This document shows, one piece after another, positions 1 through 13,719 of a stretch of 17,915 nt of DNA. The first letter of the stretch is position 1. The number at the start of each line of letters is the position of its first letter. This DNA comes from a virus (taxonomy: Duplodnaviria > Heunggongvirae > Uroviricota > Caudoviricetes). The stretch lies in the IMG/VR virus record IMGVR_UViG_2703718843_000008. One strand, given 5' to 3'. The notes under the pieces are model-generated. The model was not told the DNA's origin, did not search any database, and saw nothing but the letters and a program-made list of their open reading frames with translations. A program made the translations under genes and the position numbers.

Positions 1-411
1 ATGCCTGCCCCCGTCGTCCTGATCCTTGCGGCCGGGCGTGGAGAGCGCTTTCTCGCCTCCGGGGGAAATACCCATAAGTGTATCGGCTGGCGTCAGTCCC
101 CGGAGGTTGCGCCTTATCGCTGGCCATTTGAAGAAAACGGGAGAACTTTCGACCTTGCGATTGAACCGCAGATTACGACTAATGATCTGCGTCTGATGTT
201 GAGGCTGGCTCTTGCCGGCGGAGGAATAACAATTGCCACTCAGGAAACTTTCAGGCCATATATTGAAAGCGGTAAGCTTGTATCGCTGCTTGATGACTTT
301 CTTCCACAATTTCCGGGCTTCTATCTGTATTTCCCACAGCGTCGCAATATTGCACCAAAGCTCCGCGCCCTGATTGACTACGTCAAAGAATGGCGGCAGC
401 AATTGGCTTAA
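1..411 (+). CDS. yagP: LysR-family transcriptional regulator, C-terminal substrate-binding-domain fragment (probable gene remnant)
   Basis: 136-aa ORF starting at base 1. C-terminal part (TFDLAIEPQITTNDLRLMLRLALAGGGITIATQETFRPYIESGKLVSLLDDFLPQFPGFYLYFPQRR) resembles the end of a LysR substrate-binding domain. No N-terminal HTH, so probably a fragment. Size and position next to an integrase/tRNA-remnant match my recollection of yagP in E. coli K-12 (unverified). Confidence 0.55.
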   Translation: MPAPVVLILAAGRGERFLASGGNTHKCIGWRQSPEVAPYRWPFEENGRTFDLAIEPQITTNDLRLMLRLALAGGGITIATQETFRPYIESGKLVSLLDDFLPQFPGFYLYFPQRRNIAPKLRALIDYVKEWRQQLA

Positions 412-537
412 ATGTCTGCACCTGCACTGCCTGATGTCAGAACAGTATTTTGATGAATTGCCAAGGTTACAATGGCACAAATACGGCACAGGAGGAAACG
501 TGGTGTATTTAAATATGGGGTAACTCTTTGATTTTAA

Positions 538-554
538 TGGTGCCGATAATAGGA
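538..554. repeat. Distal att core: 17-bp direct repeat TGGTGCCGATAATAGGA, identical to 12161..12177 (18 bp identical if 537/12160 is included)
   Basis: Exact repeat seen at both ends of the satellite. The sequence is the reverse complement of the tRNA 3' end (TCCTATTATCGGCACCA). Confidence 0.65.
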
Positions 555-671
555 ATAAAATAAAACGATAACACACTGAAAAATATACAAAAAAGAAACA
601 CACCGTTAAGTAATGCCCCCGAAAATGCCCCCATAATAGATGCCGCAGTAAGTCGACTTGTCCCAAGGACT

Positions 672-714
672 GGTAAGTAATGTCAATAGCGGGAACAAAG
701 AGACATTACTTACC
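672..714. repeat. Perfect 13-bp inverted repeat (GGTAAGTAATGTC / GACATTACTTACC), 17-nt spacer, just downstream of the PRTase gene stop
   Basis: Seen directly. No U-tract follows on either strand, so it is not a canonical intrinsic terminator. Confidence 0.4.
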
Positions 715-734
715 GAGAATGGAATCCATTTAGG

Positions 735-1961
735 TTATGCTGGCCAATCCCACTGCTGATAGGCAGAGAATAGGCGCGTGAGCTCAGCAGGCGCAAGAAT
801 ATCAACAATATTAGCTCTGTAGCTATGCGATTTACCTAATGGAACATTTTCGAAATGATTAGCTTGATAAGGATTAAAATCGTGAAGCTCACCTAATGTT
901 GAGATATCGGTATTAATAGTTTTAAGCCAAGAAACAAGAATTACTTTTGCCCCTGTTCTCTGTATGTAAGCTCTTGCCGATTCAAAACTATAGCCTCGCG
1001 TTGTTATATCATCTATAAGAAGTACTGTTTTACCAGGGCCTAAAGGTGGTTTTTTATAGGTAGTTCTAGGATTTCTGTGTGGCTTAGAATTAAGACAAAT
1101 TGTATTAAGTTGATTGCAATGGTCAATTGCAACTCCCTCATTTCTTGCTTTTTGAGATTTTTTGGAAGTCGTATGCCTTAAAATAAGATCTGGGATATAC
1201 GTCTTGCGAAAACATTTTCCAAATATTGAAATCGCTTCATCCATGATATTATTCCCATATCCTTGCTTATGCCCTGGATAAACACTAACATAATTAATCA
1301 TCTTATGAATGCCACTAAAATAGAGACTGGATATTAAGGCACTCGTCCAAAATTCAGGATGGCCTAATCCATGTTTAGCAGCACGAGCATCTTCAGAGTA
1401 AAGAGTATACTCTTCCTTCATGGTGCTGAAAGGAGCAAGTGCATAGAAATTAAAATCACCATCGTGAATTTCATGACACCAAAGATGCTCTCTTAAACAG
1501 AAGGTATCTATAAATCTAGCAATATCTTTAGGGGTTGAAAACTCGAAACCATAATCTGTTTTGTCTGCCCACCATGTAGCTCTTAAAAAGAGCAACTCAC
1601 CATTAACTGCTGTTTGCATGTCGTTTATCGAAGCACCAATGTACAAAGTTTCTGTACTTTCCCAACCCATCAAATCAAGGACATATTTTGTAGCATCCGC
1701 AGTTGGCTTCCCTGGAATGCTCTTATCTTTCGCTCGACAAAGATATTTAAATTCTCCCCAATGCTTTTGTAACACATCCTCTAAAGGGGTTCTTTCATCT
1801 CCGACAACCCACCCCCTGTTAGTGAATACAACAAACTCGATCTTTTTAGTTCTGAAATATCTAATTAATTTATCTACCTCTGCAAAGATTTCGCTATCGA
1901 TCTTTCCCTTAGGCACAAGAATATCTTCAACACTAAGAATCACACCCTTAATTTTGCTCAT
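735..1961 (-). CDS. Two-domain protein: N-terminal HAD-like domain with non-canonical motif I, C-terminal type I phosphoribosyltransferase (PRTase) domain; candidate defense effector
   Basis: 408-aa ORF, ATG preceded by AAGGAAGA. C-terminal PRPP-binding signature GKTVLLIDDITTRGYS. N-terminal HAD-like motifs (FVVFTNRGW; GKP; IGASINDMQTA) but the usual DxD nucleophile position reads SVEDIL. AT-rich. Confidence 0.85.
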   Translation of the reverse strand: MSKIKGVILSVEDILVPKGKIDSEIFAEVDKLIRYFRTKKIEFVVFTNRGWVVGDERTPLEDVLQKHWGEFKYLCRAKDKSIPGKPTADATKYVLDLMGWESTETLYIGASINDMQTAVNGELLFLRATWWADKTDYGFEFSTPKDIARFIDTFCLREHLWCHEIHDGDFNFYALAPFSTMKEEYTLYSEDARAAKHGLGHPEFWTSALISSLYFSGIHKMINYVSVYPGHKQGYGNNIMDEAISIFGKCFRKTYIPDLILRHTTSKKSQKARNEGVAIDHCNQLNTICLNSKPHRNPRTTYKKPPLGPGKTVLLIDDITTRGYSFESARAYIQRTGAKVILVSWLKTINTDISTLGELHDFNPYQANHFENVPLGKSHSYRANIVDILAPAELTRLFSAYQQWDWPA

Positions 1962-1971
1962 TTCATCTTCC

Positions 1972-3036
1972 TTAGAGATCTAAGCTCTGCTGTATCGGCT
2001 GTGCTTTTAAATCATGATTATTATTCAAAATATAATTACTCATCTCATTCAATTCAAAAGGCATTAAAAAAGATAAAGAATTTCTATTTTCTTCAGCAAA
2101 CTTCAATTCTGGTCTACTTTCATACGTAGTAGGAAGATATGGACTCGCTATCTTTTTTGCATACTTAAAAGCATAATCAACAGTATGTGATGTTCCACTT
2201 TTAATATTCCATTCGACTGGTATTAGTGAATCACATAAAGCAGCCTGGATTCTGTTGCGCCTTACAAAATTTTCTGCGCTATATGTTTGTTCAGGTAGAT
2301 ACTCGGTAACGATAGCCCCACCATTAGAAACTATTGCTCGATATAACTCTTTAGAACCTTTCGGATACTCGACAAAAATCCCATTACCCAATACCGCAAT
2401 AGTTGGAATGCCATATCTCAGCGATTCATAATGACAACATTGATCTATTCCTGTCGCCAAACCACTGACTGTTGAAACATCTTTAGAATATAGAGAAGAA
2501 ACAATCAGTTTTACTAGAAAAATACCATCATCCGTTGGCTTTCGTGTCCCCACAATTGCAACAGATTTCTTATTAAGAAGTTCATAATTACCATGAACAA
2601 AAATCCAAAATGGCGGATCGCTTATGTTCTTTAATGATTGAGGAAATGTAGCCTGATCATAAAAGGTGAGCACAATACCATTTTTATTGAGTTCACGAGC
2701 TCTCTCCAGTCCCTTAGACCAAAGGTCTTGTTGAAATGTTTCCCAAGATATATTTTTAGGCAAGGAAACTCTTAGATATCCTGCCAAGGCATCAGCTGTA
2801 TTATCTTTTAATATATTCTTAAATCCAATTTTGGATTGATAGATTTTGCGAAGCGTCCAGTAACCAACCCCCTTTAGACAAGTTAAGGCAAGAAACGCAA
2901 TAATTTCATTTTTCCAAAACTCTCTAACTTCAGTGTAATCTTTATATTCCATTTTACGTTTGCCTTTTAGATTACAACCCGTACTCAACACAAAAAATTT
3001 AGAAAATTGTTGCCAAAAGCATATTATAAATAGCAT
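1972..3036 (-). CDS. DprA/Smf-like (SLOG superfamily) protein; candidate defense partner of the PRTase protein
   Basis: Rossmann-like DprA signature VAIVGTRKPTDDG ... SGLATGIDQCCH ... TIAVLGNG ... YP ... RRNRIQAAL. Stop codon lies 10 nt before the PRTase ATG, so the two are co-transcribed. True start may be the internal ATG at 2952 (MEYKDY...); the first 28 codons are AT-rich and include a TATAAT. Confidence 0.8.
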   Translation of the reverse strand: MLFIICFWQQFSKFFVLSTGCNLKGKRKMEYKDYTEVREFWKNEIIAFLALTCLKGVGYWTLRKIYQSKIGFKNILKDNTADALAGYLRVSLPKNISWETFQQDLWSKGLERARELNKNGIVLTFYDQATFPQSLKNISDPPFWIFVHGNYELLNKKSVAIVGTRKPTDDGIFLVKLIVSSLYSKDVSTVSGLATGIDQCCHYESLRYGIPTIAVLGNGIFVEYPKGSKELYRAIVSNGGAIVTEYLPEQTYSAENFVRRNRIQAALCDSLIPVEWNIKSGTSHTVDYAFKYAKKIASPYLPTTYESRPELKFAEENRNSLSFLMPFELNEMSNYILNNNHDLKAQPIQQSLDL

Positions 3037-3317
3037 CTTACCGCAGATTTGTGAAGCAACAACATCCCTAGGAGAAACCTTAACCTAGCGGGATAACTTA
3101 CTGACCAATCCTCAGCTAGCTCATTGAATTGCCCCCATATCGCACAGCCCCGCACGCCTGCCCGCTTCGCTTAACAGACTGGTTTTCATGCACCTCATAA
3201 ATCGTCTCAGAAGCCACCAAACAAGGGCTTTCTCGTCAAAAATGGTGCATAAGACTCATGCGTTTTCATGCGCCATAGACATGCACTCATGCGCTCTCAG
3301 GCCAGCCAGGGAAAAGG

Positions 3318-3346
3318 TGTTAAAAATCCCGGTACTCGACCGGGAT
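3318..3346 (-). terminator. Intrinsic terminator of the late (sid-psu-ogr) operon
   Basis: On the minus strand, stem AATCCCGGT / ACCGGGATT with 5-nt loop, followed by TTTTAA; about 20 nt downstream of the ogr-like stop. Confidence 0.55.
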
Positions 3347-3366
3347 TACGTGAGAGTTTTTTCTAA

Positions 3367-3639
3367 TCAGACAGGAATCTGCTGACGGCTTGACAGTTTT
3401 GACGCGGAGCCATAGCGATTGAGCGTTTGCTGTTGTTTTACCAGGGTTTGTGATTTGTCTGGTTCCTGTTCATTGCGCCGGGGTTTCATGATTATCTTAT
3501 CCACACTCTCCAGTGCCGTAAATGTGCAGGAACATTCCAGATTCTGGCACTGATACCACGAGCGTTTAACTGACGGAGCTTCATAGGCTGCTGTTCTGGC
3601 GTGTGCAACTGTACCGCATTCCGGACATTTAAGTGCCAT
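3367..3639 (-). CDS. ogr: Ogr/Delta-family zinc-finger late transcription activator
   Basis: MALKCPECGTVAHARTAAYEAPSVKRSWYQCQNLECSCTFTALESV matches the P2 Ogr / P4 Delta C-x2-C ... C-x4-C pattern. ATG at 3639 is preceded by AGGAG; the ORF-track start at 3648 is a GTG. Confidence 0.85.
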   Translation of the reverse strand: MALKCPECGTVAHARTAAYEAPSVKRSWYQCQNLECSCTFTALESVDKIIMKPRRNEQEPDKSQTLVKQQQTLNRYGSASKLSSRQQIPV

Positions 3640-3644
3640 TAATA

Positions 3645-4196
3645 TCACTCCTGTATATCGTTAATGTCATTCAGGCGTTGCTGAAAACGCAGATGTTGTG
3701 CCGGAGTGTAAGAGCCCTGGCAATCACGAATCATACTGGGGTCAGGCATCAAACCGGATTCATCCAGGATCTCACGATAATCCCCGGCAATTTCAGGCGG
3801 TGTTATTGCCAGCTGGCGAACCAGAGCACTGCGTAATATACGAAACGCAACGTCAACCCCTCCGCGTCCCTTCAGGAACGGAGCCAGTGCAGATGTCAGG
3901 GCTGCCCCATTCGCCTGCATAAAATTGCTGAGAGCGGCTTCTGTGCAGGCCTCCATCAATAAATGCTGCGAGTAAATGCATTCGCGCGCAGCACAGTTAA
4001 TTTGCCATTTCAGCACATCCAGACGTTCCCGCAGTAATTCGAGCTGTCGGGCATAATCTGCTGGTTTTTCTGTGGCAGTGAGGAGAGATGCTATCTGTTG
4101 TTCAACGGCTTTTCGGCTCTCACTATGTCCGGCCCACAGAATACGGGCATTCCGAAAACTGGTAAGTGCCTGGTCAGGTGTGCCTCGGGCCGTCAT
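3645..4196 (-). CDS. psu: Psu-like polarity suppression protein (P4 family)
   Basis: 183 aa. Segments LKWQINCAA ... FMQANGAALTSALAPFLKG ... YTPAQ resemble P4 Psu as I recall it. ATGA overlap with the upstream gene; AAGGAG RBS. Confidence 0.7.
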   Translation of the reverse strand: MTARGTPDQALTSFRNARILWAGHSESRKAVEQQIASLLTATEKPADYARQLELLRERLDVLKWQINCAARECIYSQHLLMEACTEAALSNFMQANGAALTSALAPFLKGRGGVDVAFRILRSALVRQLAITPPEIAGDYREILDESGLMPDPSMIRDCQGSYTPAQHLRFQQRLNDINDIQE

Positions 4197-4936
4197 ACTG
4201 CTTTCTCCTTCTCAGCAAGTTCCTGACGAACCTTTATTTTATGCATAGCTGCCGGAGAGAGTTGATTACTGAAATCCAGACGCGCCGCATAATCCGGGGC
4301 AACTCCCGCCAGTTTAAACACCGGGTCCTGTTCAGGCATCGCATCGTTAGCCAGAGCCGGTCTGGTGATATGTTTATGAATAAAGTCTTTCAGCACTGTG
4401 TCCGGGTCATTAACTGAATTCACCACACCCACAACGGCACTGGCTTCCCGGCCCATTGTGGATTTAAGCAGGCTCAGCGTCTGAATAAGCGCTTTTCCAT
4501 GCGACTGCATAAAATCCTCCCAGATTTGTTTTGCGCGAATATCCACAAGAATGTTATGCGCGTGGATATACTTTCCGGCTAATTCCGCAGCTTTCTGCGG
4601 CAAAAGTGCATTTTCGCTTTCCTGAGCCGCCAGCAGCTCATCAAAATCCTCAAGCGTTTCTCGTCCCAGCGCAATTTCCGTGCGCAGTTTTTTCATTTCC
4701 TTTGAGACCACGCCCTGACTTTCACGAAACAGCGTGCGCCACTCCTCATTCAGTGTATTCGTCGTGGATTCCATTTCAGCGCGGCGCTGGCGGATTGTCG
4801 CAATATTATCCGCTGCCGCTTTCTGCTGACGACGTGCTTCAAGCCATGCGTTTCTGGCTGTGTTCATGGTTTCCAGTGCCCGCTGCGTTACAGCCGGAAA
4901 AGTGGAAAGGTTGTTATTCACTGCGGTGTTGTTCAT
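4193..4936 (-). CDS. sid: Sid-like capsid size determination (external scaffold) protein, putative
   Basis: 247-aa helical, Gln/Glu/Ala-rich protein directly upstream of psu and ogr. Assignment rests on size and position, not a specific motif. Confidence 0.45.
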   Translation of the reverse strand: MNNTAVNNNLSTFPAVTQRALETMNTARNAWLEARRQQKAAADNIATIRQRRAEMESTTNTLNEEWRTLFRESQGVVSKEMKKLRTEIALGRETLEDFDELLAAQESENALLPQKAAELAGKYIHAHNILVDIRAKQIWEDFMQSHGKALIQTLSLLKSTMGREASAVVGVVNSVNDPDTVLKDFIHKHITRPALANDAMPEQDPVFKLAGVAPDYAARLDFSNQLSPAAMHKIKVRQELAEKEKAV

Positions 4937-5114
4937 GACTTCTCCTGTCGGGTTGGTTCGTTACGTCAATTGTGTCGTGGCTGACACAAGCACACTATCG
5001 GTGCTCAGTGTGTGGTGGCTGGCACAACGGGCGCTTGCGGTTATTCAGACGTGGCTATGAAAGCCAGCCAGATAAAAATGCCCACTGTTTCAGTCTGCTT
5101 TATGTCCCTGATGC

Positions 5115-5311
5115 GGTGGAACAGGTGAAACATGTGTTACAGCTTTGTTTTATAAATCATTTATATACACTGCACCGGTGGAACATCGCGGGTAACAAGG
5201 TGGAACAGCGGATTGGCTGGCGTTACATCTGTTCCACCTCACTATTTCAGAAGGTGGAACAGGTTCAGCCCCTGTAAAATACGGTTGTTCCACCTGTTTC
5301 ACCTGTTACCC
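5115..5311. repeat. Iteron cluster with AT-rich tract; putative satellite replication origin / cis replication region
   Basis: At least 7 copies of GGTGGAACA / TGTTCCACC in both orientations (5115, 5177, 5199, 5230, 5253, 5286), plus GGTGAAACA / TGTTTCACC variants and an AT-rich stretch at about 5137..5170, immediately downstream of the primase-helicase gene. Confidence 0.6.
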
Positions 5312-5337
5312 TTAATAAATAAGACTCACGCAAAGCC

Positions 5338-8010
5338 TTAACCCGGCACCTCGCTGTTGAAGACATAGAGCCTGCGGGGATTCATCTCTGGCGGGCGAAT
5401 GGTTGTCTGGAGTTTGCCATCAGTGGAGGGCAGCAGGTATCCACGATCTGCGCACAGACGCGCCACCTTGCGCGGGTCAAATCCCCTGCAGATTTCTTTC
5501 CAGCCGGACGGCATGACATAAAACGTAGTGACAGCTTCCGTGCCCTGCGCGGTACTGCCTTTCTCCACCCTGCGCCAGCCCACCATATTGGCGGGACGGT
5601 TGCGCTCGTCATACCAGTCTGCAAAGCGGCTGTACTGATTCGCGGTAAAGAAACTGCGAACCTGCTCCAGTGCGGCGATATCTTCCTGATTGGCGGTGTG
5701 CCCGCGCTCTTTCAGCCATGCGTTCAGGCAGACGCGGGTTGCCCGCAATGCTTCACCCTCAGGCCAGCCGGTGATACCCAGACGGGTTGCCAGTTCACCT
5801 GCCATCGCCACCAGTGCAAAGCGGTTCACAGCCCGGCCCACCTGATTGCCTGCATCTTTCGGAGTCAGGGCGGCAGCATATTCCTTCATCAGCGATTTTG
5901 CCTGTGCCGTTAGTCCGTTAAGATCAGCGGTCAGTGCTTTCAGCCACTCCCGGAACGGCGAACCGTAGTAGCAGGACGTGGCCCATTCAAGATGCTCTGC
6001 CAGAGCCTTGCCGCTGTCGAAGCCGTGCAGCTCCTCAAAAACGCCAAACTTCCCGGAATCGCTGGGGATCTGGATCATCCTGACTTCCATCCCGGCAAAA
6101 GTACGCTCACCGGCCTTTGCCGCATGTTCGGTCAGAGATAACTCGCCAGTTGAAAAGAACAACAGGCGCCACTGCTTACGGGTACGCAGTTCACCGTCCG
6201 TACCGGCACGACTCTTGCCCTGACCGTTTGCCAGCATGTAGGCGATATTGCCTGCCTCGCGTCCGTCAACTTCCCGGATCTCATCAAGCATCATGGCGGC
6301 ATCGTTGCGGCGGCTGGCACATCCCTCCAGCGCGTTGCCGGTGGCCCGCCATGTCTGCCAGTAGTCAGGCCCGCCGCAGACGGAGGTTGCCGCTTTCATG
6401 GTGGTGGTCTTACCGTCTGTCGATTCCCCTTTGAGGTGGTAGCCGCCGCCGTCCATACCAACCAGCCGTAACAGTGGTGCAGCAAAGGCCAGGCTGACAG
6501 CAAATGCCACGCGGGAGTTGCCGGTACAGTAGCGGGATACGTTCTCCCGCCATTCCTCTGTTGTGCCCGACACGCGGAAATCACGCCCCTGCACGGAAGT
6601 GGTCTGGAGAATGACACCCTCTGCACCTTCACCGCTGACCTCATCCTGCAGGACGTAAACCTGACCATGCCAGCCAGTACGGCTGACGCAGGTCACGCGA
6701 CGTTCCGGTTTACACAGTGAGATATATTCCATCAGGCGTGCGCGTGCCTCACCGGTGGTGCTGATATAAGACAGCCCGTTAACAAGCAGTACCCGGCGCA
6801 GTTCCTCACCACTGCCGCTCAGCATTTCCATCGGCATCGCCCAGCGGCGACGCTCACCCCACGTATCTTCCCATTCCAGCAGTCGTCCGAAGTTACCGCC
6901 ATCGGCATCGCAGGTGATTGCCGTCACGCGCAGCGGGCTGCATATTTTGACGTTCTGGATCTCCGTCTCACCGTTGCGCTGTACCTGCTTTTCATACCAG
7001 AGATATTCCTGGGTAAGACGGAACCCGTGCGGCAGTTGCGTGCGGCCTTCCCCGCACAGTACCAGACCGTTGCGAAAGGCTTCACGGGCACGGGTAATAC
7101 CGTGCTCCCGATGAAAGTCATTCCAGTCAGCCTTAATCTCTCCTGGTGGCAGCGTCATCCAGCCGCCAACAGCTTTTGCCGCCCGTTCAGCAAAGGCTCT
7201 GCCGGGATTCTCCCCCCCGTCCTGAAAATCGTTATCACCGGCGATGATAATTTTTACCTCAGGCCAGCGTGCCCGCAGCGACTGCGCCACATTGGGCAGG
7301 TTGCCCGCAGATATGGCAGCCACTACGCATCCGGCAGTGAGCTGGCTTACCGTCAGCGCCGTAGCGTAACCTTCGGTAATCACCACCTGTACCGGTGGTT
7401 CAGACGGTAACGGGCTGAGCGACACAAACGCGCCTTTCATCGTGCTGCCGGGCAGTATGCTTTTTTCACCCGTCGGGGCGATAAGCTGTGCACCGGTCAC
7501 GGCTCCGGTGTTGGTCGTGAGTGGTAACAGCAGGGAACCGGCAGGAAAATCCTTACCGCTGATATGCTGCACGCTTCCGGTCAGAGAGGCCGGGTATCCG
7601 GCGAACCCTTTTCCTGCCAGATAGGCACTTTCTCCCGTGTGGCTCTCTTTCATCAGCGTCGCCACGGTAAGGCTCATGTCGCGTTTAGGGGCTTTTTGTC
7701 TGGCAGGCTTAACAGGCAGTTCCTGCACATCCGGCACATTAAGCACCTGCGCCACCTGCTGCGCAGCCTTTCTGACGTTGTAGCCGGTTACGAGCTTAAC
7801 CAGATCCAGACCGTCACCATTGCCACACTGGCTGCAGATCCACGTCCCGCGCCCGTCAAGGTCATCGAGGCGAAAACGATCCTTGCCCCCACATTTCGGG
7901 CAGGGACCGTGCCTGCCGTTTTCAGGTACATCAATACGCAGCATATGCAGAATAACGGGCCATTTCCCCCGCGCGGCGGCTGAAATCTGCGTAACCGTCT
8001 GTATTGTCAT
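5338..8010 (-). CDS. P4 alpha-like replicative primase-helicase
   Basis: 890 aa. N-terminal zinc-binding motif CPKCGG ... CSQCG; Toprim-like VVITEGYATA ... IIIAGDND; P-loop GESTDGKTTT. ATGA overlap with the upstream ORF. Confidence 0.9.
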   Translation of the reverse strand: MTIQTVTQISAAARGKWPVILHMLRIDVPENGRHGPCPKCGGKDRFRLDDLDGRGTWICSQCGNGDGLDLVKLVTGYNVRKAAQQVAQVLNVPDVQELPVKPARQKAPKRDMSLTVATLMKESHTGESAYLAGKGFAGYPASLTGSVQHISGKDFPAGSLLLPLTTNTGAVTGAQLIAPTGEKSILPGSTMKGAFVSLSPLPSEPPVQVVITEGYATALTVSQLTAGCVVAAISAGNLPNVAQSLRARWPEVKIIIAGDNDFQDGGENPGRAFAERAAKAVGGWMTLPPGEIKADWNDFHREHGITRAREAFRNGLVLCGEGRTQLPHGFRLTQEYLWYEKQVQRNGETEIQNVKICSPLRVTAITCDADGGNFGRLLEWEDTWGERRRWAMPMEMLSGSGEELRRVLLVNGLSYISTTGEARARLMEYISLCKPERRVTCVSRTGWHGQVYVLQDEVSGEGAEGVILQTTSVQGRDFRVSGTTEEWRENVSRYCTGNSRVAFAVSLAFAAPLLRLVGMDGGGYHLKGESTDGKTTTMKAATSVCGGPDYWQTWRATGNALEGCASRRNDAAMMLDEIREVDGREAGNIAYMLANGQGKSRAGTDGELRTRKQWRLLFFSTGELSLTEHAAKAGERTFAGMEVRMIQIPSDSGKFGVFEELHGFDSGKALAEHLEWATSCYYGSPFREWLKALTADLNGLTAQAKSLMKEYAAALTPKDAGNQVGRAVNRFALVAMAGELATRLGITGWPEGEALRATRVCLNAWLKERGHTANQEDIAALEQVRSFFTANQYSRFADWYDERNRPANMVGWRRVEKGSTAQGTEAVTTFYVMPSGWKEICRGFDPRKVARLCADRGYLLPSTDGKLQTTIRPPEMNPRRLYVFNSEVPG

Positions 8011-8390
8011 ACTTCCCCCTGATACAACGTCACACCAGTACTGCAGAAGTCATCAAAGGTCGCCGGAAGCGTGCGGTACATCTCCGCCATTACTTCACAG
8101 CCGCGCGCGGTCAGTACCGGCGGCGCGGTCAGCAGTGACGGCTCCAGCATGTCAGTCAGCAGTGCCAGCGCGGCAGCGGCGCCCTGTGCTTCGCCGTACT
8201 CGTTAATCAGTGCGCACTCGATATGCAGCGCAATGGCCATTTCAATACGCTCCACCGTCAGGCTGTGCGGACCATACTGATCACTGCCAGTTTCGTTCAG
8301 CATTTTCTGCCGCCATGCTGAAGCAATAGCCCGCCGGTAAAGCGCGGTTGTCATTTCTGCCGGGAAAATGGAAACCTGCGGCTGGTTCAT
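8007..8390 (-). CDS. Hypothetical satellite early-operon protein
   Basis: 127-aa ORF with strong RBS (GAAGGAGGTG); translationally coupled on both sides by ATGA overlaps. Confidence 0.55.
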   Translation of the reverse strand: MNQPQVSIFPAEMTTALYRRAIASAWRQKMLNETGSDQYGPHSLTVERIEMAIALHIECALINEYGEAQGAAAALALLTDMLEPSLLTAPPVLTARGCEVMAEMYRTLPATFDDFCSTGVTLYQGEV

Positions 8391-8671
8391 CTGGCACCTC
8401 CTTCAATCAGTGCACAGCTGTGCGCAATATCCGTCAAATCTGCCCGCAGGTACTCCATCAGCGCGGCGACACCATGCGCACAGCCAGCGTCCAGTGCTCC
8501 GGCCTGAGACGAGTATTCAGAAAAGAGAAGCTGGAGCATGTCGCAGGCATTTCTTGCGCGGGTCAGCTTTCCGAAACTGTCCTCTGACAACCCATAGGCA
8601 AAAGCACCGGTATTGTGTTTTTCAGGCAAAGTGTGGCCCTGAGCACCGTTGTGCCCGTTTGAAATATTCAT
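8387..8671 (-). CDS. Hypothetical satellite early-operon protein
   Basis: 94-aa ORF, ATG start with ACGGAG RBS, ATGA overlap with the downstream gene. Confidence 0.55.
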   Translation of the reverse strand: MNISNGHNGAQGHTLPEKHNTGAFAYGLSEDSFGKLTRARNACDMLQLLFSEYSSQAGALDAGCAHGVAALMEYLRADLTDIAHSCALIEGGAR

Positions 8672-8702
8672 CGTGGATTACTCCGTTTTCAGCGGTATTT
8701 TG

Positions 8703-9062
8703 TCAGAGAAACTTTGAATAGTGACCGTCGTCAGGCTCAGCAGAACGCCGTATGCTACGCTCCCGCCAGCGGATAAATAGCACAGACGGATGCAGTGTCA
8801 GCGGGCCGGAACCACTACCGCCTGCAGGAGCTGGTGCAGGCTTAAAGAGCGGTACATCAAACAGGCGCGTATACCGCTGTTCAAACCATGCCAGAGGGCA
8901 GGAAGAAAGCTGGTTGTCGCTGTCATGACGTATCAGCACTTCACAGCTGAATTCAGGATTAACCAGCGCCACAGAGGGCGAGGCTTCAATTAATCGGATA
9001 ATCGTGACCGTCCAGCCACGTTCATGCTGCCAGCGTTCGCCGGGGTGCGGATAATTACGCAT
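8703..9062 (-). CDS. Hypothetical satellite early-operon protein
   Basis: ORF-track start at 9092 is a TTG; the ATG at 9062 (MRNYPHPGERW...) is preceded by GGAGGTG and is the likelier start. Confidence 0.5.
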   Translation of the reverse strand: MRNYPHPGERWQHERGWTVTIIRLIEASPSVALVNPEFSCEVLIRHDSDNQLSSCPLAWFEQRYTRLFDVPLFKPAPAPAGGSGSGPLTLHPSVLFIRWRERSIRRSAEPDDGHYSKFL

Positions 9063-9231
9063 GTTCACCTCCGCAGGGAATGCGCCCGGCAAAGCTCAGT
9101 ACATAATCCGGGGCAAGTCTGCGCCGCGCTGACCGCTCGTTATCTGCGGTGATCCTTAACATCACAGGACGGGCATTGCGTTGACTGCGGTTGATCGCCG
9201 CAAATAACCAGGTACACTTCTGTTTAGCCAT
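9055..9231 (-). CDS. Small hypothetical protein (58 aa), first gene of the leftward operon
   Basis: ATG with AAGAGGT RBS; MAKQKCTWLFAAINRSQRNARPVMLRITADNERSARRRLAPDYVLSFAGRIPCGGEHA. Below the 60-aa ORF-track cutoff. Stop overlaps the next gene's start. Confidence 0.4.
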   Translation of the reverse strand: MAKQKCTWLFAAINRSQRNARPVMLRITADNERSARRRLAPDYVLSFAGRIPCGGEHA

Positions 9232-9320
9232 CTTCGTTACCTCTTATAACGGTTGGTTAAATGCCCGATTTGTGTTCCCGCACAATCGGGCATTGCTTTT
9301 ACAAGCGAACTATACTTACA

Positions 9321-9365
9321 ATGGTAATTACCATGTAGTCATCATATTCTAGGGTAATTACCATG
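9321..9365. promoter_or_regulatory. Two palindromic operator-like sites in the divergent promoter region
   Basis: ATGGTAATTACCAT (9321..9334, perfect 14-bp palindrome) and GGTAATTACC (9353..9362). The second overlaps the ATG of the ribbon-helix-helix gene. Confidence 0.5.
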
Positions 9366-9536
9366 TCAACACCACAAGAGAAACGTTCCCCACCATTCCA
9401 AATGCGTCTTACCGACGATTTTAGGTTGCAACTCGAAAAAGAAATGCGCAAAGATGGAGATAGCGCGTTGGCAACTTGGATTAAAAGAATTTTACGTAAA
9501 GAACTACAATCACGCGGGATTGACCCTAAAGGTTAA
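9363..9536 (+). CDS. Arc/Mnt-like ribbon-helix-helix repressor (57 aa)
   Basis: PPFQMRLTDDFRLQLEKEMRKDG-DSALATWIKRILRKEL follows the beta-strand/helix/helix pattern of Arc-type repressors. Divergent from the early operon. Not in the ORF track (under 60 aa). Confidence 0.55.
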   Translation: MSTPQEKRSPPFQMRLTDDFRLQLEKEMRKDGDSALATWIKRILRKELQSRGIDPKG

Positions 9537-9568
9537 TCAGTTAAATATTACTAACTATCAATTAAGGC

Positions 9569-9859
9569 TTAGGGAGTAGGTGATAATCTATTCCCTTTAT
9601 TAATTGCTCTTGCCTTATTTCTCATCCCCTCAAACTGTTGACCTGAGTTTTCTTCAAACCCATCTCGCCACTTATAATAATCAGCAGCGCGCCATCGGGA
9701 CATCCGACCTATTTTTATAGGTTTTGGAAAGCGATTCAGAGAAATCAATCGATAAATCCATTTGTCACTTAATAAACAATCGGAAGTAATAAACTTCATA
9801 TCGATCAGAGAATCCATTGAAGGTCGTTGCAAAGTAGTATTATCATGTTTAGATAACAT
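9569..9859 (-). CDS. AlpA/Vis-family HTH protein (excisionase or regulator)
   Basis: 96 aa; IYRLISLNRFPKPIKIGRMSRWRAADYYKW matches the AlpA-type pattern (FP-P-I-G ... W ... W). GGAG RBS. Confidence 0.75.
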   Translation of the reverse strand: MLSKHDNTTLQRPSMDSLIDMKFITSDCLLSDKWIYRLISLNRFPKPIKIGRMSRWRAADYYKWRDGFEENSGQQFEGMRNKARAINKGNRLSPTP

Positions 9860-9984
9860 TCATCATTCTCCGTTTATCTAAGTCTATTGGCTTCAACACG
9901 GAAAATTAAAACATAGGTTATAAATGAGAAAAATGTGACTAATGAAAAAAATCCAAAATCATTAGTCACAATAATTGTTAACAT

Positions 9985-10809
9985 TTAGTTAAACTTAATG
10001 TTTTTCATGCAACTACGTAGCAAGCTAACAACAGTATCATAGCTCAAAGGTGGTTCTCCGGTCTTAGGCCAGAACTCACTGGCATGTTGAAAAAGATAAT
10101 CAGCTATCGCTGCTGGACTCTCTCTTCTTAGCCTCATATCACGATGATAGAGCGAAATAATAGCCATGAGTATTTCAGTTCGAGGAACAGCATGTTTTTG
10201 TTTTTGCGCCTCAGATTGTGATTTATATTTATTGGCGTTTTTTATCCGTTTTTGTTCGCATAAGACTATATCAATGAATTTTTGAATCTGTACCTTTGTA
10301 ATCCACAAAACCTCAAAAAGATAATAATTTTCTTTTTCATCATAATTTACATAAAGAATTACCTTACAATTTATATTAGGCGTACCCGCCAGTAGAAAAT
10401 GAATAGGCCAGGAATCCGGTTGCCCCTCATGCTTAACTAACAGATCTTTATATTCATAATCAACAGCCCATAAACCGGATATAAAGCATCGAATAAAACC
10501 ATTTTTATCAATTAAATTATTTTCATCAGGGATTCTTATAGAGCTTAAGTCTGACAACATAATATTGCCATTTCTATCTCGTGGTAAATATTTCAGATTA
10601 GATAAGAACTCATCCATTTGACCATCAATCTTCAAACCACATGAAACATCATACTCATCATCATGGAATTCCATGCATAGCTCTACATCTCGTTCTCTGG
10701 CAAACCAGAGTATATCCTTTTCACTACAACCAATTTTTTCTGAAGCTTCATCCAACTGGTAGTAATCTCTGAGCAGAGAATCAGTATTATTAATTTTTAA
10801 AATATTCAT
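9985..10809 (-). CDS. Hypothetical protein, AT-rich orphan cargo gene translationally coupled to the integrase
   Basis: 274-aa ORF whose ATG overlaps the integrase stop (ATGA). Marked AT-rich codon usage; no motif I can recognise. Confidence 0.65.
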   Translation of the reverse strand: MNILKINNTDSLLRDYYQLDEASEKIGCSEKDILWFARERDVELCMEFHDDEYDVSCGLKIDGQMDEFLSNLKYLPRDRNGNIMLSDLSSIRIPDENNLIDKNGFIRCFISGLWAVDYEYKDLLVKHEGQPDSWPIHFLLAGTPNINCKVILYVNYDEKENYYLFEVLWITKVQIQKFIDIVLCEQKRIKNANKYKSQSEAQKQKHAVPRTEILMAIISLYHRDMRLRRESPAAIADYLFQHASEFWPKTGEPPLSYDTVVSLLRSCMKNIKFN

Positions 10810-11996
10810 TTATGAGTACCAATTAGCTCAGATAAATAATTAGCATACCATTGCATCATTTCTCTTCTCCCTTCGAGATATTGGGCATGGTTATAAATTC
10901 CACGAATAGAGTTTTTGTCCGAATGAGCAAGCTGGGTTTCAATCCAAGCGCTGTTAAATCCTTTCTCATGTAGAATTGTACTCATCGTATGCCTGAAACC
11001 ATGTCCCGTAACACGCCCTGCATATCCAATACGTTTAAACACCTGATTGATGCTTGCTTCACTCATAAATTTGCTAGGATCGTTGCGTCCAGGGAACATC
11101 AGCGGGTAGTTCCCAGTTAGTTCTTTCAAACTTTTGAGATGGGATAATGCTTGTTTTGGTAACGGGACAATATGGCTCCTACGCATTTTCATACGTTCTT
11201 TTGGGATCTCCCACACCGCATTATCAAAATCCACCTCTCGCCACTCACCTGCTCGTAGTTCTCCAGTTCGTAGACCTGTCAGGATAAGTAAATGCGCCCC
11301 CAACAATACAATTGGACTTCCTGAATAAGAATTAAGGGCATTAAAGAACTCCGGTAGTTCGTTGGCTTTGAGGAATGGATAGTGGACTGCTTCATGTCCT
11401 TGCATCGCACTGGCAAGATCCGGTGCCGGATTGTAGATTGCCCTACCCGTTACGATGGCATAGCGAAAAACTTCACCGCATCGCTGACGGACTTTCTTCG
11501 CTTTCTCCATAGCGCCTCGAGCTTCTATCAACCTCAGAACTTCAAGCAGTTCAAGGGGCTGAATATCAGCTATAGGTCTGTGCCCAATATGCGGAAAAAT
11601 GTCTTTCTCAAATGCCTCAATGATGTCGGAAGCATAGCCCTCAGACCATTTGGATGATTTCATTTTGTGCCACTCTAACGCCACTTCTCTGAATGGGTTA
11701 AGTGTCTCAATCGCTGCGTTTAAAGCCTGCTTTTTGGCTTTTTTGACTTCGCCGGGATCTTCACCTGCTGCGAGTAGTTTCTTTGCGTCTTCTCGTTTTT
11801 GTCTGGCATCAGCAAGTGTGACTGTTGGATAAACACCAAAGGACAATCGTTTCTCTTTACCAGCAAAACGGTATTTCATACGCCAGTAACGCGAGCCATT
11901 AGGTTCGACCTGAAGGTATAGGCCACCTCCATCAAACAGCTTATAGCTCTTCTCTTTTCCTTTCGCAGCTTCAACCTTGCGGGCATTCAGCATCAT
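10806..11996 (-). CDS. int: P4-type tyrosine integrase
   Basis: N-terminus KSYKLFDGGGLYLQVEPNGSRYWRMKYRFAGKEKRLSFGVYP is typical of P4-family integrases; C-terminal catalytic residues HGFRHT ... Y. ORF-track start at 12065 is a TTG; ATG at 11996 or 11993 (MMLNARKVE) fits the family N-terminus better. Confidence 0.9.
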   Translation of the reverse strand: MMLNARKVEAAKGKEKSYKLFDGGGLYLQVEPNGSRYWRMKYRFAGKEKRLSFGVYPTVTLADARQKREDAKKLLAAGEDPGEVKKAKKQALNAAIETLNPFREVALEWHKMKSSKWSEGYASDIIEAFEKDIFPHIGHRPIADIQPLELLEVLRLIEARGAMEKAKKVRQRCGEVFRYAIVTGRAIYNPAPDLASAMQGHEAVHYPFLKANELPEFFNALNSYSGSPIVLLGAHLLILTGLRTGELRAGEWREVDFDNAVWEIPKERMKMRRSHIVPLPKQALSHLKSLKELTGNYPLMFPGRNDPSKFMSEASINQVFKRIGYAGRVTGHGFRHTMSTILHEKGFNSAWIETQLAHSDKNSIRGIYNHAQYLEGRREMMQWYANYLSELIGTHK

Positions 11997-12160
11997 TGGG
12001 GGCACATTTCCTAGACCGAACAGAACATGCCCCTGATTGTGCCCCCAACCGCGTGTTGATTTCAAGAGACAAGGGTTGACCTCAAACGTATGAAAACAAC
12101 GTAATATATATGTTTTTAAATGATTTTGTTGATGTGGGTTGACTTGGGAAAACTAGGTGA

Positions 12161-12209
12161 TGGTGCCGATAATAGGAGTCGAACCTACGACCTTCGCATT
12201 ACGAATGCG
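12161..12209 (-). pseudogene. ptwF: Partial tRNA-Thr(CGU) gene, 3' 49 nt only (thrW-like att remnant)
   Basis: Minus strand reads CGCATTCGTAATGCGAAGGTCGTAGGTTCGACTCCTATTATCGGCACCA: anticodon stem-loop with CGT anticodon, T-arm (GGTTCGACTCC), acceptor 3' strand and CCA. No D-arm or 5' acceptor strand upstream. The symbol is my recollection of the K-12 name. Confidence 0.75.
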
Positions 12210-12318
12210 ATGTTAATGCATTTTTAACTACTTGAGCAATCAATCAAAACAACATACTTTATATTATAAAACACCAAGTTATAGCAATAAACCCGTTGAT
12301 TGAAATTAACAAAAGTTG

Positions 12319-13719
12319 ATGTTTATTCCCTCCATTTACTTACACCAGCAGTTACATTATTGTAAGACAGCAATTCTCAACTGGAGCCGAAAAATGGCGC
12401 TTTCAAGACAAAAATTTACCTTCGAAAGACTTCGCAGATTCACCTTACCGGAAGGGAAAAAACAAACTTTTCTTTGGGATGCAGATGTAACAACCCTGGC
12501 ATGCCGAGCAACTAGCGGAGCAAAAGCCTTTGTATTCCAAAGCGTATATGCGGGGAAAACCCTTCGCATGACTATTGGCAACATTAACGACTGGAAGATT
12601 GATGATGCGAGAGCCGAGGCAAGACGGTTACAAACATTGATCGATACAGGGATAGATCCACGAATTGCTAAGGCTGTAAAAATCGCAGAAGCAGAATCCC
12701 TGCAGGCAGAATCACGTAAAACAAAAGTGACTTTCTCCGTCGCCTGGGAAGACTATCTTCAAGAATTGAGAACCGGTATCAGTGCAAAAACTAAACGCCC
12801 ATATTCTACTCGATACATTGCCGATCACATTAACTTGTCCAGTCGTGGAGGCGAAAGTAAAAAAAGAGGCCAAGGCCCGACTTCGGCTGGACCATTGGCT
12901 AGTTTGCTCAACCTGCCGTTATCGGAGCTAACCCCAGATTACATAGCAGCGTGGCTGAGTACAGAAAGGCAAAATAGACCTACCGTCACTGCTCACGCTT
13001 ATCGCCTACTACGTGCTTTCATCAAATGGAGTAATTATCAGAAAAAATATCAAGGGATCATTCCTGGCGATCTGGCACAAGATTACAACGTAAGAAAAAT
13101 GGTTCCCGTGTCAGCGAGTAAAGCTGATGATTGCCTGCAAAAGGAACAACTAAAAAGCTGGTTTAGTGCCGTGCGTAGCCTCAATAATCCTATTGCATCG
13201 GCCTATCTCCAAGTACTTTTGCTCACTGGTGCTCGGCGTGAAGAAATTGCGTCGCTTCGCTGGTCAGACGTAGATTTCAAATGGTCAAGCATGCGAATTA
13301 AAGACAAGATCGAAGGTGAACGTATCATCCCTCTCACTCCTTATGTTTCTGAATTGTTAAATGTACTAGCGCAATCCCCAAATTCTGACGTAAATAAGGA
13401 GGGTTGGGTTTTCAGAAGTAACAGTAAAAGTGGCAAAATTATTGAGCCGCGTTCAGCGCACAACAGAGCGTTAGTGCTGGCTGAGTTACCACATATCAGC
13501 CTTCACGGTTTACGTCGTAGTTTTGGTACTTTGGCCGAGTGGGTTGAAGTTCCCACTGGTATTGTTGCTCAAATTATGGGACACAAACCCAGCGCTCTTG
13601 CCGAAAAACACTATCGCCGTCGTCCGTTAGATCTGTTACGAAAATGGCACGAGAAAATTGAGACATGGATCTTAAATGAAGCAGGTATTACCATAAAAAA
13701 CAACGTTGATATGCGTTGA
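12319..13719 (+). CDS. intF: Tyrosine integrase of the neighbouring cryptic prophage
   Basis: Tyrosine recombinase motifs LLLTGARREE ... HGLRRSFGT ... GHKPSALAEKHY. First ATG at 12319 gives 466 aa (ORF-track start 12316 is a TTG). Confidence 0.85.
   Translation: MFIPSIYLHQQLHYCKTAILNWSRKMALSRQKFTFERLRRFTLPEGKKQTFLWDADVTTLACRATSGAKAFVFQSVYAGKTLRMTIGNINDWKIDDARAEARRLQTLIDTGIDPRIAKAVKIAEAESLQAESRKTKVTFSVAWEDYLQELRTGISAKTKRPYSTRYIADHINLSSRGGESKKRGQGPTSAGPLASLLNLPLSELTPDYIAAWLSTERQNRPTVTAHAYRLLRAFIKWSNYQKKYQGIIPGDLAQDYNVRKMVPVSASKADDCLQKEQLKSWFSAVRSLNNPIASAYLQVLLLTGARREEIASLRWSDVDFKWSSMRIKDKIEGERIIPLTPYVSELLNVLAQSPNSDVNKEGWVFRSNSKSGKIIEPRSAHNRALVLAELPHISLHGLRRSFGTLAEWVEVPTGIVAQIMGHKPSALAEKHYRRRPLDLLRKWHEKIETWILNEAGITIKNNVDMR

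Follow-up and report, generated by a model that had tools for sequence, protein, structure and literature searches.

A ShosTA-type gene pair, very probably a toxin–antitoxin defence operon, in the variable cargo of a P4-like satellite

Millman et al. equate ShosTA with the system verified by Rousset, where it appears as DprA+PRTase (pFR105); in DefenseFinder, it is named Rst_DprA-PPRT. The validated system, pFR105, was taken from the P2 hotspot in Escherichia coli APEC O1 rather than from a P4 satellite, and a homologue protects against T7 and lambda (Rousset 2022). A preliminary description of the locus analysed here placed such a system in P4-like satellite hotspots. This is correct for the architecture, which the P4-hotspot table of Rousset lists, but not for the validated system. 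The same description regarded the mechanism as open, a view overtaken by two structural and mechanistic papers of 2025–2026 (PMC11961720, PMC12961424), which largely resolve it as a PRPP-dependent toxin, ShosT, and a DprA-like, RecA-recruiting, unstable antitoxin, ShosA. In the APEC O1 and KTE181 homologues, ShosT is toxic alone and is neutralised by ShosA without direct binding. Homologues protect against T7, lambda and SECphi4/18, and the protection reached 10^6-fold against T7 (Pu 2025). The D331A/D332A substitution abolishes ShosT toxicity, ShosA is unstable and the T7 protein Gp0.7 is a trigger (Pu 2025), while the PRPP complex, the ShosA dimer and RecA binding were described by Yang 2026. 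A transient pulse of chloramphenicol or rifampicin alone also sets off toxicity in a homologue. Among the mutants described in homologues, R56A causes a marginal loss of toxicity, R261E has no effect on neutralisation, and R206E and L181E/F182E impair ShosA function. For the triggering of the system, two models compete.

The window, that is, the whole stretch of 17,915 nt under analysis, contains a P4-like satellite of 11.6 kb with a ShosTA-like gene pair at its non-integrase end. The satellite encodes Delta/Ogr (3367-3648), Psu (3645-4196), a Psu-like protein in the Sid position (4193-4936), the alpha primase (5338-8010), an integrase (10806-12065) and AlpA. Its att core copies form a perfect 18-nt direct repeat. 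The copy at the shosT end, ATGGTGCCGATAATAGGA (537-554), corresponds by direct-repeat search and alignment to the 3' end of the tRNA-Thr gene thrW/ptwF, and the copy at the integrase end (12160-12177) lies within a pseudo-tRNA on the minus strand (12164-12237). Positions 470-554 match the attP 'type CP4-6, similar to thrW/ptwF' of lambdoid phages. A distant-mode DNA search of a phage collection using positions 400-5000 returned the att region only, without P4 itself.

Between the att core and the conserved delta/cos-proximal sequence, megablast and the GC profile delimit a variable cargo segment (555-3140), in which shosA and shosT are the sole genes. Satellite sequence conservation stops at around position 3141: more than 2,600 E. 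coli genomes match the window over 3141-3400 only, while positions 500-3140 are present in 10 out of 5,426 complete E. coli genomes, always within the satellite. The segment is AT-rich, as first described, with a GC content of 0.34-0.39 over 501-3000 compared to 0.51-0.60 in the satellite core. Its position between psu/delta (cos-proximal) and att/int fits the P4-like defence hotspot. For the P2/P4 cos site, we searched the window with the 19-mer that we take to be GGCGAGGCGGGGAAAGCAC, allowing up to three mismatches, and found no match. A GC-rich string resembling this 19-mer occurs at approximately 3143-3160.

The two genes are co-directional on the minus strand and separated by 10 nt (1962-1971), as anticipated in the preliminary description, with the antitoxin gene shosA (1972-2952) preceding the toxin gene shosT (735-1961; 408 aa). 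The former was assigned through PADLOC, Pfam, PDB, AF2/Foldseek and the RefSeq start, and the latter through a full-length PADLOC match, PDB, AF2/Foldseek and residue mapping. The longest ORF containing shosA spans 1972-3036 (354 aa) and includes SGLATGIDQCCH and TIAVLGNG, the expected DprA/Smf signature. Translation almost certainly begins with the ATG at 2952 (MEYKDY..., 326 aa), since the RefSeq annotation of a 100%-identical gene is 981 nt long and crystallised ShosA aligns from that N-terminus onwards; the 28 extra codons upstream, up to 3036, are probably untranslated. The shosT ribosome-binding site read from the sequence, AAGGAAGA (1966-1973, minus strand), overlaps the end of shosA, its first two bases being part of the TAA stop codon. 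Given the 10-nt gap, coupled translation of the two genes is likely, and the end of shosA also lies within about 30 nt of shosT in 21 orthologous loci. Judging from sequence, the pair is no chance combination of ORFs, because the family HMM E-values are around 1e-90.

A repeat search revealed candidate transcription signals on both sides of the operon. A 9-bp GC-rich hairpin followed by TTTT (3325-3347, minus strand), just 3' of the delta/ogr stop codon, likely terminates the satellite late operon and, therefore, shosAT should have its own promoter within 2953-3320. A consensus scan of that interval, upstream of shosA, yielded no minus-strand promoter. On the other side, 21 nt 3' of the shosT stop codon, two perfectly complementary 13-bp arms enclose a loop of 17 nt (672-714); no U-tract comes after this inverted repeat, which could be a transcript-end hairpin or a protein-binding site. 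Neither hairpin was retrieved by the consensus terminator scan, which gave no terminator.

ShosT matched the PADLOC ShosT profile (PDLC03012) with an E-value of 1.5e-92, aligning residues 4-407 with profile positions 6-426 out of 427. A PDB sequence search retrieved the ShosT entries 8zvb, 9w2p and 9w2q (3.9e-87 over residues 4-407), and the identity with the crystallised APEC O1 protein is 39.9%. The AF2 model has a pLDDT of 91, and its top Foldseek matches are 8ZVC, 8ZVD and 8ZVB (E-values of 3e-42 to 4e-39; TM 0.84-0.89). HAD phosphatases come next, far behind, and match the N-terminal domain only. This pyrophosphatase-type, HAD-like domain covers residues 1-157 (1491-1961) and is followed by a non-canonical PRTase domain (residues 158-408; 738-1490) with the PRPP motif VLLIDDITTRG. 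The ORF holds the predicted PRPP motif, VLLIDDITTRGYS, with D317/D318. The Pfam HAD Hydrolase profile scored 1.1e-5 and Pribosyltran 0.009 (15.8 bits, below the gathering score of 26.3); the PRTase fold and PRPP loop are nonetheless present, as seen through the ShosT structures.

The residues critical for toxicity are retained, with D331/D332, R285, K280 and H240 corresponding to D317/D318, R273, K268 and H231. An alignment of 25 homologues shows no variation at D317/D318, K268 and H231, and very little at R273 (conserved in at least 90%). HAD motif I reads S10-V-E12-D13 instead of DxDx(T/V), so that the nucleophile Asp is missing, in keeping with the altered motif noted initially. Across the clade, E12 does not vary and S10 hardly does. 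The protein still has K85 of motif III and D114 of motif IV. The altered HAD-like domain had been proposed as a distinguishing feature of this locus, yet it is a family trait: the crystallised ShosT, whose domain is described as a pyrophosphatase, also lacks the nucleophile Asp (SIAD versus SVED here). Of the pyrophosphatase site residues N53, K54, R56 and K92, three are conserved as N48, R49 (for K54) and K85, whereas the phosphate-binding R56 aligns with W51. The shosT allele in the window is one codon shorter than the other E. coli copies, owing to a deletion within an Ala run (A194).

ShosA matched the PADLOC ShosA profile (PDLC03961) at 3.3e-90 over nearly its full length, and the Pfam DNA_processg_A profile at 3.8e-58. 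A PDB sequence search retrieved ShosA 9vzo/8zva (1.6e-71), and the identity with the crystallised APEC O1 protein is 47.3%. The protein comprises a SAM-like N-terminal domain (residues ~1-92; 2677-2952), a DprA Rossmann domain (residues ~93-309; 2026-2676) and a low-confidence tail (residues 310-326). The AF2 model (pLDDT 93) has 8ZVA as its top Foldseek match (3.9e-34; TM 0.84/0.89), far ahead of DprA. Profile searches and structural comparisons, the two computational checks suggested in the preliminary description, thus agree on ShosTA for both proteins. The ssDNA-binding residues R139 and R234 correspond to R137 and R232, invariant in 48 sequences. Of the RecA-contact residues, K200 is retained (YPK), while R206 is out of register, aligning with Y in the PDB alignment, where an Arg follows one position later. 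The dimer-interface residues L181/F182 are not kept in register, the interface pair L144/L181 is replaced by D142/R179, and R261 by D259.

The APEC O1/KTE181 systems of known structure (PDB 8ZVA-8ZVD, 9VZO, 9W2P, 9W2Q) share with the pair described here the A-then-T gene order, the tight spacing, the two-domain architecture of both proteins, the PRPP- and ssDNA-binding residues, and the same kind of cos-proximal cargo slot in a P2/P4-family element. They differ in the host element, a P4-like satellite here and a P2-like prophage for APEC O1, in the residues R56, L144/L181, R261 and R206 noted above, and in overall sequence, with only 40% (ShosT) and 47% (ShosA) identity. PsyrTA (RqlHI) also combines an antitoxin with a DprA-like domain and a toxin with a PRTase domain, the latter according to Millman et al. 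However, the PADLOC PsyrA profile gave a much weaker match (1.8e-24), restricted to the Rossmann core (residues 115-287 of the 354-aa ORF), and the partner architecture differs, so the pair is not a PsyrTA member. Canonical DprA/Smf proteins (Streptococcus pneumoniae 3UQZ, Helicobacter pylori 4LJR) have in common with ShosA the SAM and Rossmann folds and the ssDNA-binding Arg residues, and both they and the studied ShosA interact with RecA. In contrast, ShosA is only ~25% identical to them, has a toxin partner, an additional C-terminal helix and a tail motif, and lacks a competence context. It scored below the cutoffs of the NCBIfam DprA equivalogs TIGR00732 (162.4; cutoff 191.15) and NF008007 (130.9; cutoff 495). 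Retron PRTase effectors resemble ShosT in being PRTase-fold toxins acting in abortive infection; unlike retrons, the pair comes with no reverse transcriptase or msDNA, and ShosT carries a HAD-like domain fused to its PRTase domain and is paired with a DprA-like protein.

We compared 22 loci from Gamma- and Alphaproteobacteria, Cyanobacteria and Chloroflexota. In 21 of them, shosA immediately precedes shosT in the same direction, and this arrangement is also found in phage P2_4C9. The surroundings were mobile or defence regions unrelated to one another, with varied neighbouring genes including integrases, GajB/UvrD-like helicases, a type I MTase, a pPIWI REase and P2 gpA, portal and terminase genes. 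No competence or purine-salvage operon recurred among the loci compared, as the absence of a housekeeping context here had suggested. The variant in the window corresponds to RefSeq WP_001567470 and WP_001716168, named 'DNA-processing protein DprA' and 'phosphoribosyltransferase'. These accessions do not appear in the available portion of the Rousset tables, which gives another pair for the P4 hotspot, and the main text of a 2026 P2/P4 hotspot survey mentions neither ShosTA nor DprA.

By family membership, architecture, functional residues, gene pairing and mobile context, the pair belongs to ShosTA. It very probably constitutes a type IV toxin–antitoxin/abortive-infection defence operon carried as variable cargo of the satellite, and the earlier assignment to the DprA-PRTase type of Rousset 2022 agrees with the PADLOC ShosA/ShosT calls and with the equation of the two names by Millman et al. 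Its toxicity, neutralisation, phage range and trigger are expected by analogy with experiments on homologues of 40-47% identity. On that basis, shosA and shosT would be co-transcribed and translationally coupled. The non-canonical PRTase domain of ShosT would bind PRPP and pass the phosphoribosyl group to an acceptor, the released pyrophosphate being removed by the HAD-like domain; these activities would disturb purine metabolism, leading to DNA damage or duplications, filamentation and cell death. ShosA would act as a dimeric SAM and DprA-fold protein that does not bind ShosT. Instead, it would bind ssDNA and recruit RecA for recombination repair, offsetting the damage, and its rapid turnover would be owed to the C-terminal tail. 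A phage would abolish ShosA function either by shutting down the expression of host genes (T7 Gp0.7) or by flooding the cell with ssDNA or replication intermediates. The pre-made ShosT would then kill the infected cell before phage maturation.

Three other readings were weighed against this one. The pair could mainly be an addiction module stabilising the satellite through post-segregational killing, with phage defence secondary or absent in this variant. A genuine toxin–antitoxin pair on an integrative mobile element, adjoining an att site, would suit that role, as would the instability of the antitoxin and the toxicity set off by an antibiotic pulse alone in the studied homologue; protection of up to 10^6-fold against T7 and lambda by homologues and the location in a P4 defence hotspot, where about one third of the cargos tested are defensive, make it improbable as the main function, although the two roles are not exclusive. 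We consider it less probable still that ShosA senses a nucleotide-derived signal in the SLOG manner, comparable to the ThsA SLOG domain or LOG, and exerts allosteric control over the PRTase. The DprA Rossmann domain does fall in the SLOG/LOG fold group, and Foldseek retrieved LOG, MoCo-carrier, YpsA and the ThsA SLOG domain at 1e-5 to 1e-3, but ShosA and DprA matches are far stronger (1e-34 to 1e-16), the ssDNA-contacting Arg residues are invariant, and the homologue binds ssDNA and RecA, not ShosT. Of the two ligand types suggested initially for the DprA domain, ssDNA is the one borne out: in the homologue, the DprA-like protein was shown to act as an antitoxin that binds ssDNA and not to sense nucleotide-derived ligands. 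Ordinary housekeeping genes, a competence DprA/Smf with a nucleotide-salvage phosphoribosyltransferase or HAD phosphatase, would explain the RefSeq product names but are refuted by the sub-cutoff equivalog and Pribosyltran scores, the missing HAD nucleophile, the confinement of the cassette to the satellite of those 10 E. coli genomes and the lack of a conserved housekeeping neighbourhood.

Within the ShosTA reading, the sole point that is possibly new is a conserved clamp-docking-like tail motif on the antitoxin. β-Clamp-binding peptides follow a pentapeptide (QL[SD]LF or QxxLF) or hexapeptide (QLxLxL) consensus in an exposed flexible segment (PMC12309361, PMC4564189). ShosA terminates in the six residues QQSLDL-COOH (1975-1992, minus strand), which resemble the hexapeptide and lie in a tail with a pLDDT of 57-62. 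A motif of this kind is found in the last 12 residues of 185 out of 210 unique ShosA-like proteins, compared to about 6 out of 118 shuffled tails, with family variants such as QLSLL, QLPLI, QLGLEL, QLSMDL, QLDLL and QLSLF. The crystallised APEC O1 ShosA is among the carriers (QLSLLGDE), with a Q-x-x-L-type motif comparable to QQSLDL, and Q321 is invariant in the ShosA alignment. The ShosTA mechanism papers mention neither the sliding clamp nor a tail motif (PMC11961720, PMC12961424). We tentatively propose, at slightly less than even confidence, that ShosA antitoxins are β-sliding-clamp clients, whose disordered C-terminal Q-x-x-L-(x)-L/F motif would dock on DnaN left behind at stalled forks or gaps.

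The locus adds one further ShosTA operon, of the sort that PADLOC/DefenseFinder-type profiles recognise, at a location where such an operon is expected. As a natural P4-satellite-borne variant with 40-47% identity, it could help to tell conserved from dispensable features. The lack of conservation of R56 and R261 is in line with the mild phenotypes of both mutants, and the L144/L181 dimer contact is replaced here by D/R. Should the clamp-binding tail prove real, it would fill a gap in a mechanism now marked by two rival trigger models and by an antitoxin that makes no contact with the toxin. Clamp docking would direct RecA loading to the lesions caused by ShosT and put the 'C-terminus-mediated instability' of ShosA in a new light. 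It would further help to connect the system with phage escape mutations affecting SSB and primase-helicase genes, and ShosA activity or turnover might be tied to the replication state of the host, which phages disturb.

We compared the two proteins with profile, sequence and structure databases. PADLOC-DB identified the upstream protein as ShosA (3.3e-90) and the downstream protein as ShosT (1.5e-92, covering profile positions 6–426 of 427). A PDB sequence search retrieved ShosT (8zvb/c/d, 9w2p and 9w2q; 3.9e-87, residues 4–407) and ShosA (9vzo and 8zva; 1.6e-71), with canonical DprA far behind, at 9e-24 and weaker. The predicted structures (pLDDT 93.3 for ShosA and 91.1 for ShosT) had ShosA 8ZVA (E 3.9e-34, TM 0.84/0.89) and ShosT 8ZVC/D/B (E 3e-42 to 4e-39, TM 0.84–0.89) as their top Foldseek matches. 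In Pfam, DNA_processg_A scored 3.8e-58, HAD Hydrolase fell right on the cutoff and Pribosyltran stayed below it. The NCBIfam DprA equivalogs were not reached (162 versus 191 bits and 131 versus 495 bits); an assignment as Smf was, therefore, rejected, and the shosA product is regarded as a DprA paralogue. ShosA shares 47.3% identity with its crystallised counterpart from E. coli APEC O1 (273 columns), and ShosT shares 39.9% with its own (404 columns). The pair is a divergent member of the known, structurally characterised ShosTA system. The preliminary description had proposed a defence cassette of the DprA–PRTase type, to be checked by profile searches and structure prediction; both approaches matched ShosA and ShosT, the PDB search agrees, and the proposal is thus supported.

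The window DNA is from E. coli, and its region 500–3400 is 99.4–99.7% identical to 10 out of 5,426 complete E. coli genomes. On the minus strand, shosA occupies 1972–3036 as its longest ORF (354 aa) and shosT 735–1961 (408 aa). The most likely shosA start is the ATG at 2952 (MEYKDY..., 326 aa), because RefSeq annotates a 100%-identical gene in this way and the alignment to the crystallised homologue begins there. The strings read earlier from the sequence (SGLATGIDQCCH, TIAVLGNG and VLLIDDITTRGYS) are all present in the two ORFs, as are the 10-nt spacing and AAGGAAGA, which overlaps the TAA stop of the upstream gene; the AT-rich block is also real, with a GC content of 34–39% over 501–3000 versus 51–60% in the adjoining satellite genes. 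The exact proteins are already in public databases (ShosT as WP_061357429.1), and their 90% clusters contain hundreds of sequences from Escherichia, Salmonella, Klebsiella and Enterobacter. This ShosT allele has one Ala fewer in an ARAAAK run than other E. coli copies (408 versus 409 aa), after residue 193 (window about 1381–1383), an in-frame change distant from the catalytic residues, and two further substitutions (T87 and K293). Starting 21 nt beyond shosT, 672–714 holds a perfect 13-bp inverted repeat (GGTAAGTAATGTC / GACATTACTTACC) whose arms enclose 17 nt. It lacks a U-tract and may form a hairpin at the transcript end or bind a protein close to att.

Both genes are part of an 11.6-kb P4-like satellite, which also encodes Ogr/Delta (3367–3648), Psu (3645–4196), a Psu-like gene in the Sid position (4193–4936), a TOPRIM/DUF927 alpha primase (5338–8010), an AlpA-like protein (9569–9859) and an integrase (10806–12065). 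The ends of the satellite are marked by a perfect direct repeat of 18 nt, ATGGTGCCGATAATAGGA (537–554 and 12160–12177), which corresponds to a tRNA-Thr 3' end, and 470–554 matches a lambdoid-phage attP described as 'CP4-6 type, thrW/ptwF'. The tRNA-like element at 12164–12237 (minus strand) was called by Rfam (45.5 bits) and rejected by ARAGORN; the match to thrW is exact over its 3' half, but the 5' half is degenerate. The integration site is a ptwF-like pseudo-tRNA-Thr. Beyond it lie a second integrase (12316–13719) and a gene with a Pfam YagK/YfjJ domain (16467–17093), which correspond to the intF...yagK end of CP4-6; the satellite, inserted in the pseudo-tRNA, therefore stands in tandem with a CP4-6 remnant. 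Strain LR-64-2 carries this satellite directly at thrW itself. The CP4-6-like remnant also carries ORFs of 284 aa (14616–15470, plus strand) and 243 aa (17184–17915, minus strand) that had no match in Pfam, PADLOC or PHROGs.

More than 2,600 E. coli genomes match only 3141–3400, comprising the delta end and cos-proximal sequence, whereas 500–3140 is found in just 10, indicating that the cassette occupies a variable cargo slot. In the circular form, this slot lies between psu/delta and att-int, the position of the hotspot described by Rousset et al. Within 537–12177, the att site falls between the cargo slot and int, so that the integrated cargo is placed at the end far from the integrase; the 2022 method of Rousset et al., which requires an integrase at most 10 genes downstream of psu, would overlook cargos in such an arrangement. 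A second AT-rich block (34–36% GC) contains a 274-aa ORF (9985–10809, minus strand) with a 4-nt overlap with the integrase stop. It is conserved in LR-64-2, had no match in Pfam, PADLOC, PHROGs or NCBIfam, and is a candidate for a further accessory or defence gene on the satellite.

We then scanned the distribution of the system using one genome per species. The 22 ShosT loci came from Gamma- and Alphaproteobacteria, Nostoc, Chloroflexota and a planctomycete. A ShosA homologue was encoded upstream on the same strand, ending within about 30 nt, in 21 of them, and was divergent in the planctomycete. None of the 22 loci carried the window's satellite genes, and no Pfam family recurred in more than 4 of the 115 neighbouring ORFs scanned. 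The recurrent neighbour families were integrases, UvrD/GajB-like helicases, a type I methylase, a pPIWI-associated REase, resolvases and P2 genes, the last (gpA, portal, terminase and scaffold) marking the P2 cos-proximal hotspot. A tblastn search of phage genomes matched ShosT in three records of P2-like phages, with 38% identity. In phage P2_4C9, shosA-shosT adjoins gpA, and its ShosA does not differ from the APEC O1 crystal sequence at any of the 285 residues that could be compared. The neighbours are, then, of mobile or defence type and the ShosA and ShosT profiles were matched; neither the housekeeping context nor the missing profile match that would have spoken against the preliminary description was found.

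How the pair in the window would act can be proposed from the literature on its homologues, in which the mechanism, previously described as open, has since been addressed. Rousset et al. showed protection against T7 and lambda by the DprA+PRTase pair of a P2 hotspot in APEC O1, and Millman et al. equated this pair with ShosTA. Pu et al. (2025) found 10^6-fold protection against T7 with abortive-infection-like behaviour, and neutralisation of the toxic ShosT by ShosA without binding between them. In their account, ShosT is a pyrophosphatase and PRPP-binding PRTase that perturbs purine metabolism, leading to filamentation and DNA duplications; ShosA binds ssDNA and promotes recombination. They also report T7 Gp0.7 as a trigger through transcription shut-off, with ShosA decaying faster than ShosT owing to its C-terminus. 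Yang et al. (2026) described the complex with PRPP, the dimeric form of ShosA and its direct interaction with RecA, which excess ssDNA disrupts, and proposed phage ssDNA as a second trigger.

We mapped the positions named in these two papers onto the window proteins. The ssDNA-binding arginines of ShosA are invariant (R139 and R234 in the homologue, R137 and R232 in the window). R261 corresponds to D259 and varies across the family, consistent with the reported tolerance of R261E in the homologue. The RecA-contact residue K200 is retained, and R206 is out of register in the alignment. At the dimer interface, the reported L144–L181' contact of the crystallised protein is replaced by D142 and R179 (about 2416–2418 and 2527–2529). 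Among 22 orthologues (loci L002–L023) plus APEC O1, L/L(M) is confined to the APEC-type clade, and 16 others, forming the clade of the window, have D/R(K). This is a covarying, compensatory-looking swap of a hydrophobic contact for a probable salt bridge.

Nearly all ShosA orthologues (loci and sequences L002–L024 and P0121–P0331) end in a short motif behind a variable low-complexity linker. It reads QQSLDL in the window (residues 321–326; 1975–1992), QLSLLGDE in the whole APEC O1 clade (23/23), crystallised protein included, and QLGLEL, QLSMDL, QFNLDI, QLPLI, QLDLLGTS or QLSLF in others. Q-x-x-h-x-h or Q-h-x-h-h occurs within the last 12 residues of 185 out of 210 unique full-length ShosA-like proteins (146 with a stricter pattern). 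When the last 25 residues were shuffled and the last 10 scored in both sets, the motif was present in 105 of 118 observed tails versus a mean of 5.9 of 118 (about 5%) in the shuffles; it was absent from all 120 ShosT proteins. Q321 is invariant in a 48-sequence ShosA alignment, in which the approximately 12 preceding columns lack consensus. The window tail is modelled without secondary structure (pLDDT 57–62), and residues 316–328 are disordered in the crystallised protein. The pattern matches the bacterial beta-clamp-binding consensus, a pentamer QL[S/D]LF (generally QxxLF) or a hexamer QLxLxL, of which QLSLPL binds tightly (PMC12309361, PMC4564189), although position 2 of the window motif is Q instead of L. 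The words 'clamp' and 'DnaN' are absent from the two mechanism papers, where this family-wide motif is unreported, and a literature search for clamp motifs in DprA or DprA-like proteins found nothing relevant. Judging from this resemblance, the ShosA tail may bind the beta clamp, a tentative reading to which we give slightly less than an even chance. It is weakened by the homologue's tail-less construct (1–313), which still neutralised under arabinose over-expression. Since the tail is the reported instability determinant, it could instead be simply a degron.

In ShosT, conservation was scored in 25 homologues. D331A/D332A and R285E in the PRPP site of the homologue abolish toxicity, and K280E and H240E weaken it; the corresponding D317/D318, K268 and H231 are invariant, as are Y188 (Y196) and Q284 (Q296), and R273 is nearly so (90% or more). 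In the HAD-like domain, which had been suggested as a distinguishing feature, motif I is SVED in the window and SIAD in crystallised APEC O1 ShosT; the domain is, therefore, shared, and the missing nucleophile is a family trait rather than a peculiarity of this copy. N53, K54 and K92 correspond to N48, R49 and K85. The phosphate-binding R56 of the pyrophosphatase site, in contrast, aligns with W51 (1809–1811). R56A only marginally lowers toxicity in the homologue, and the W51 substitution raises the question of whether the clade of the window ShosT keeps pyrophosphatase activity.
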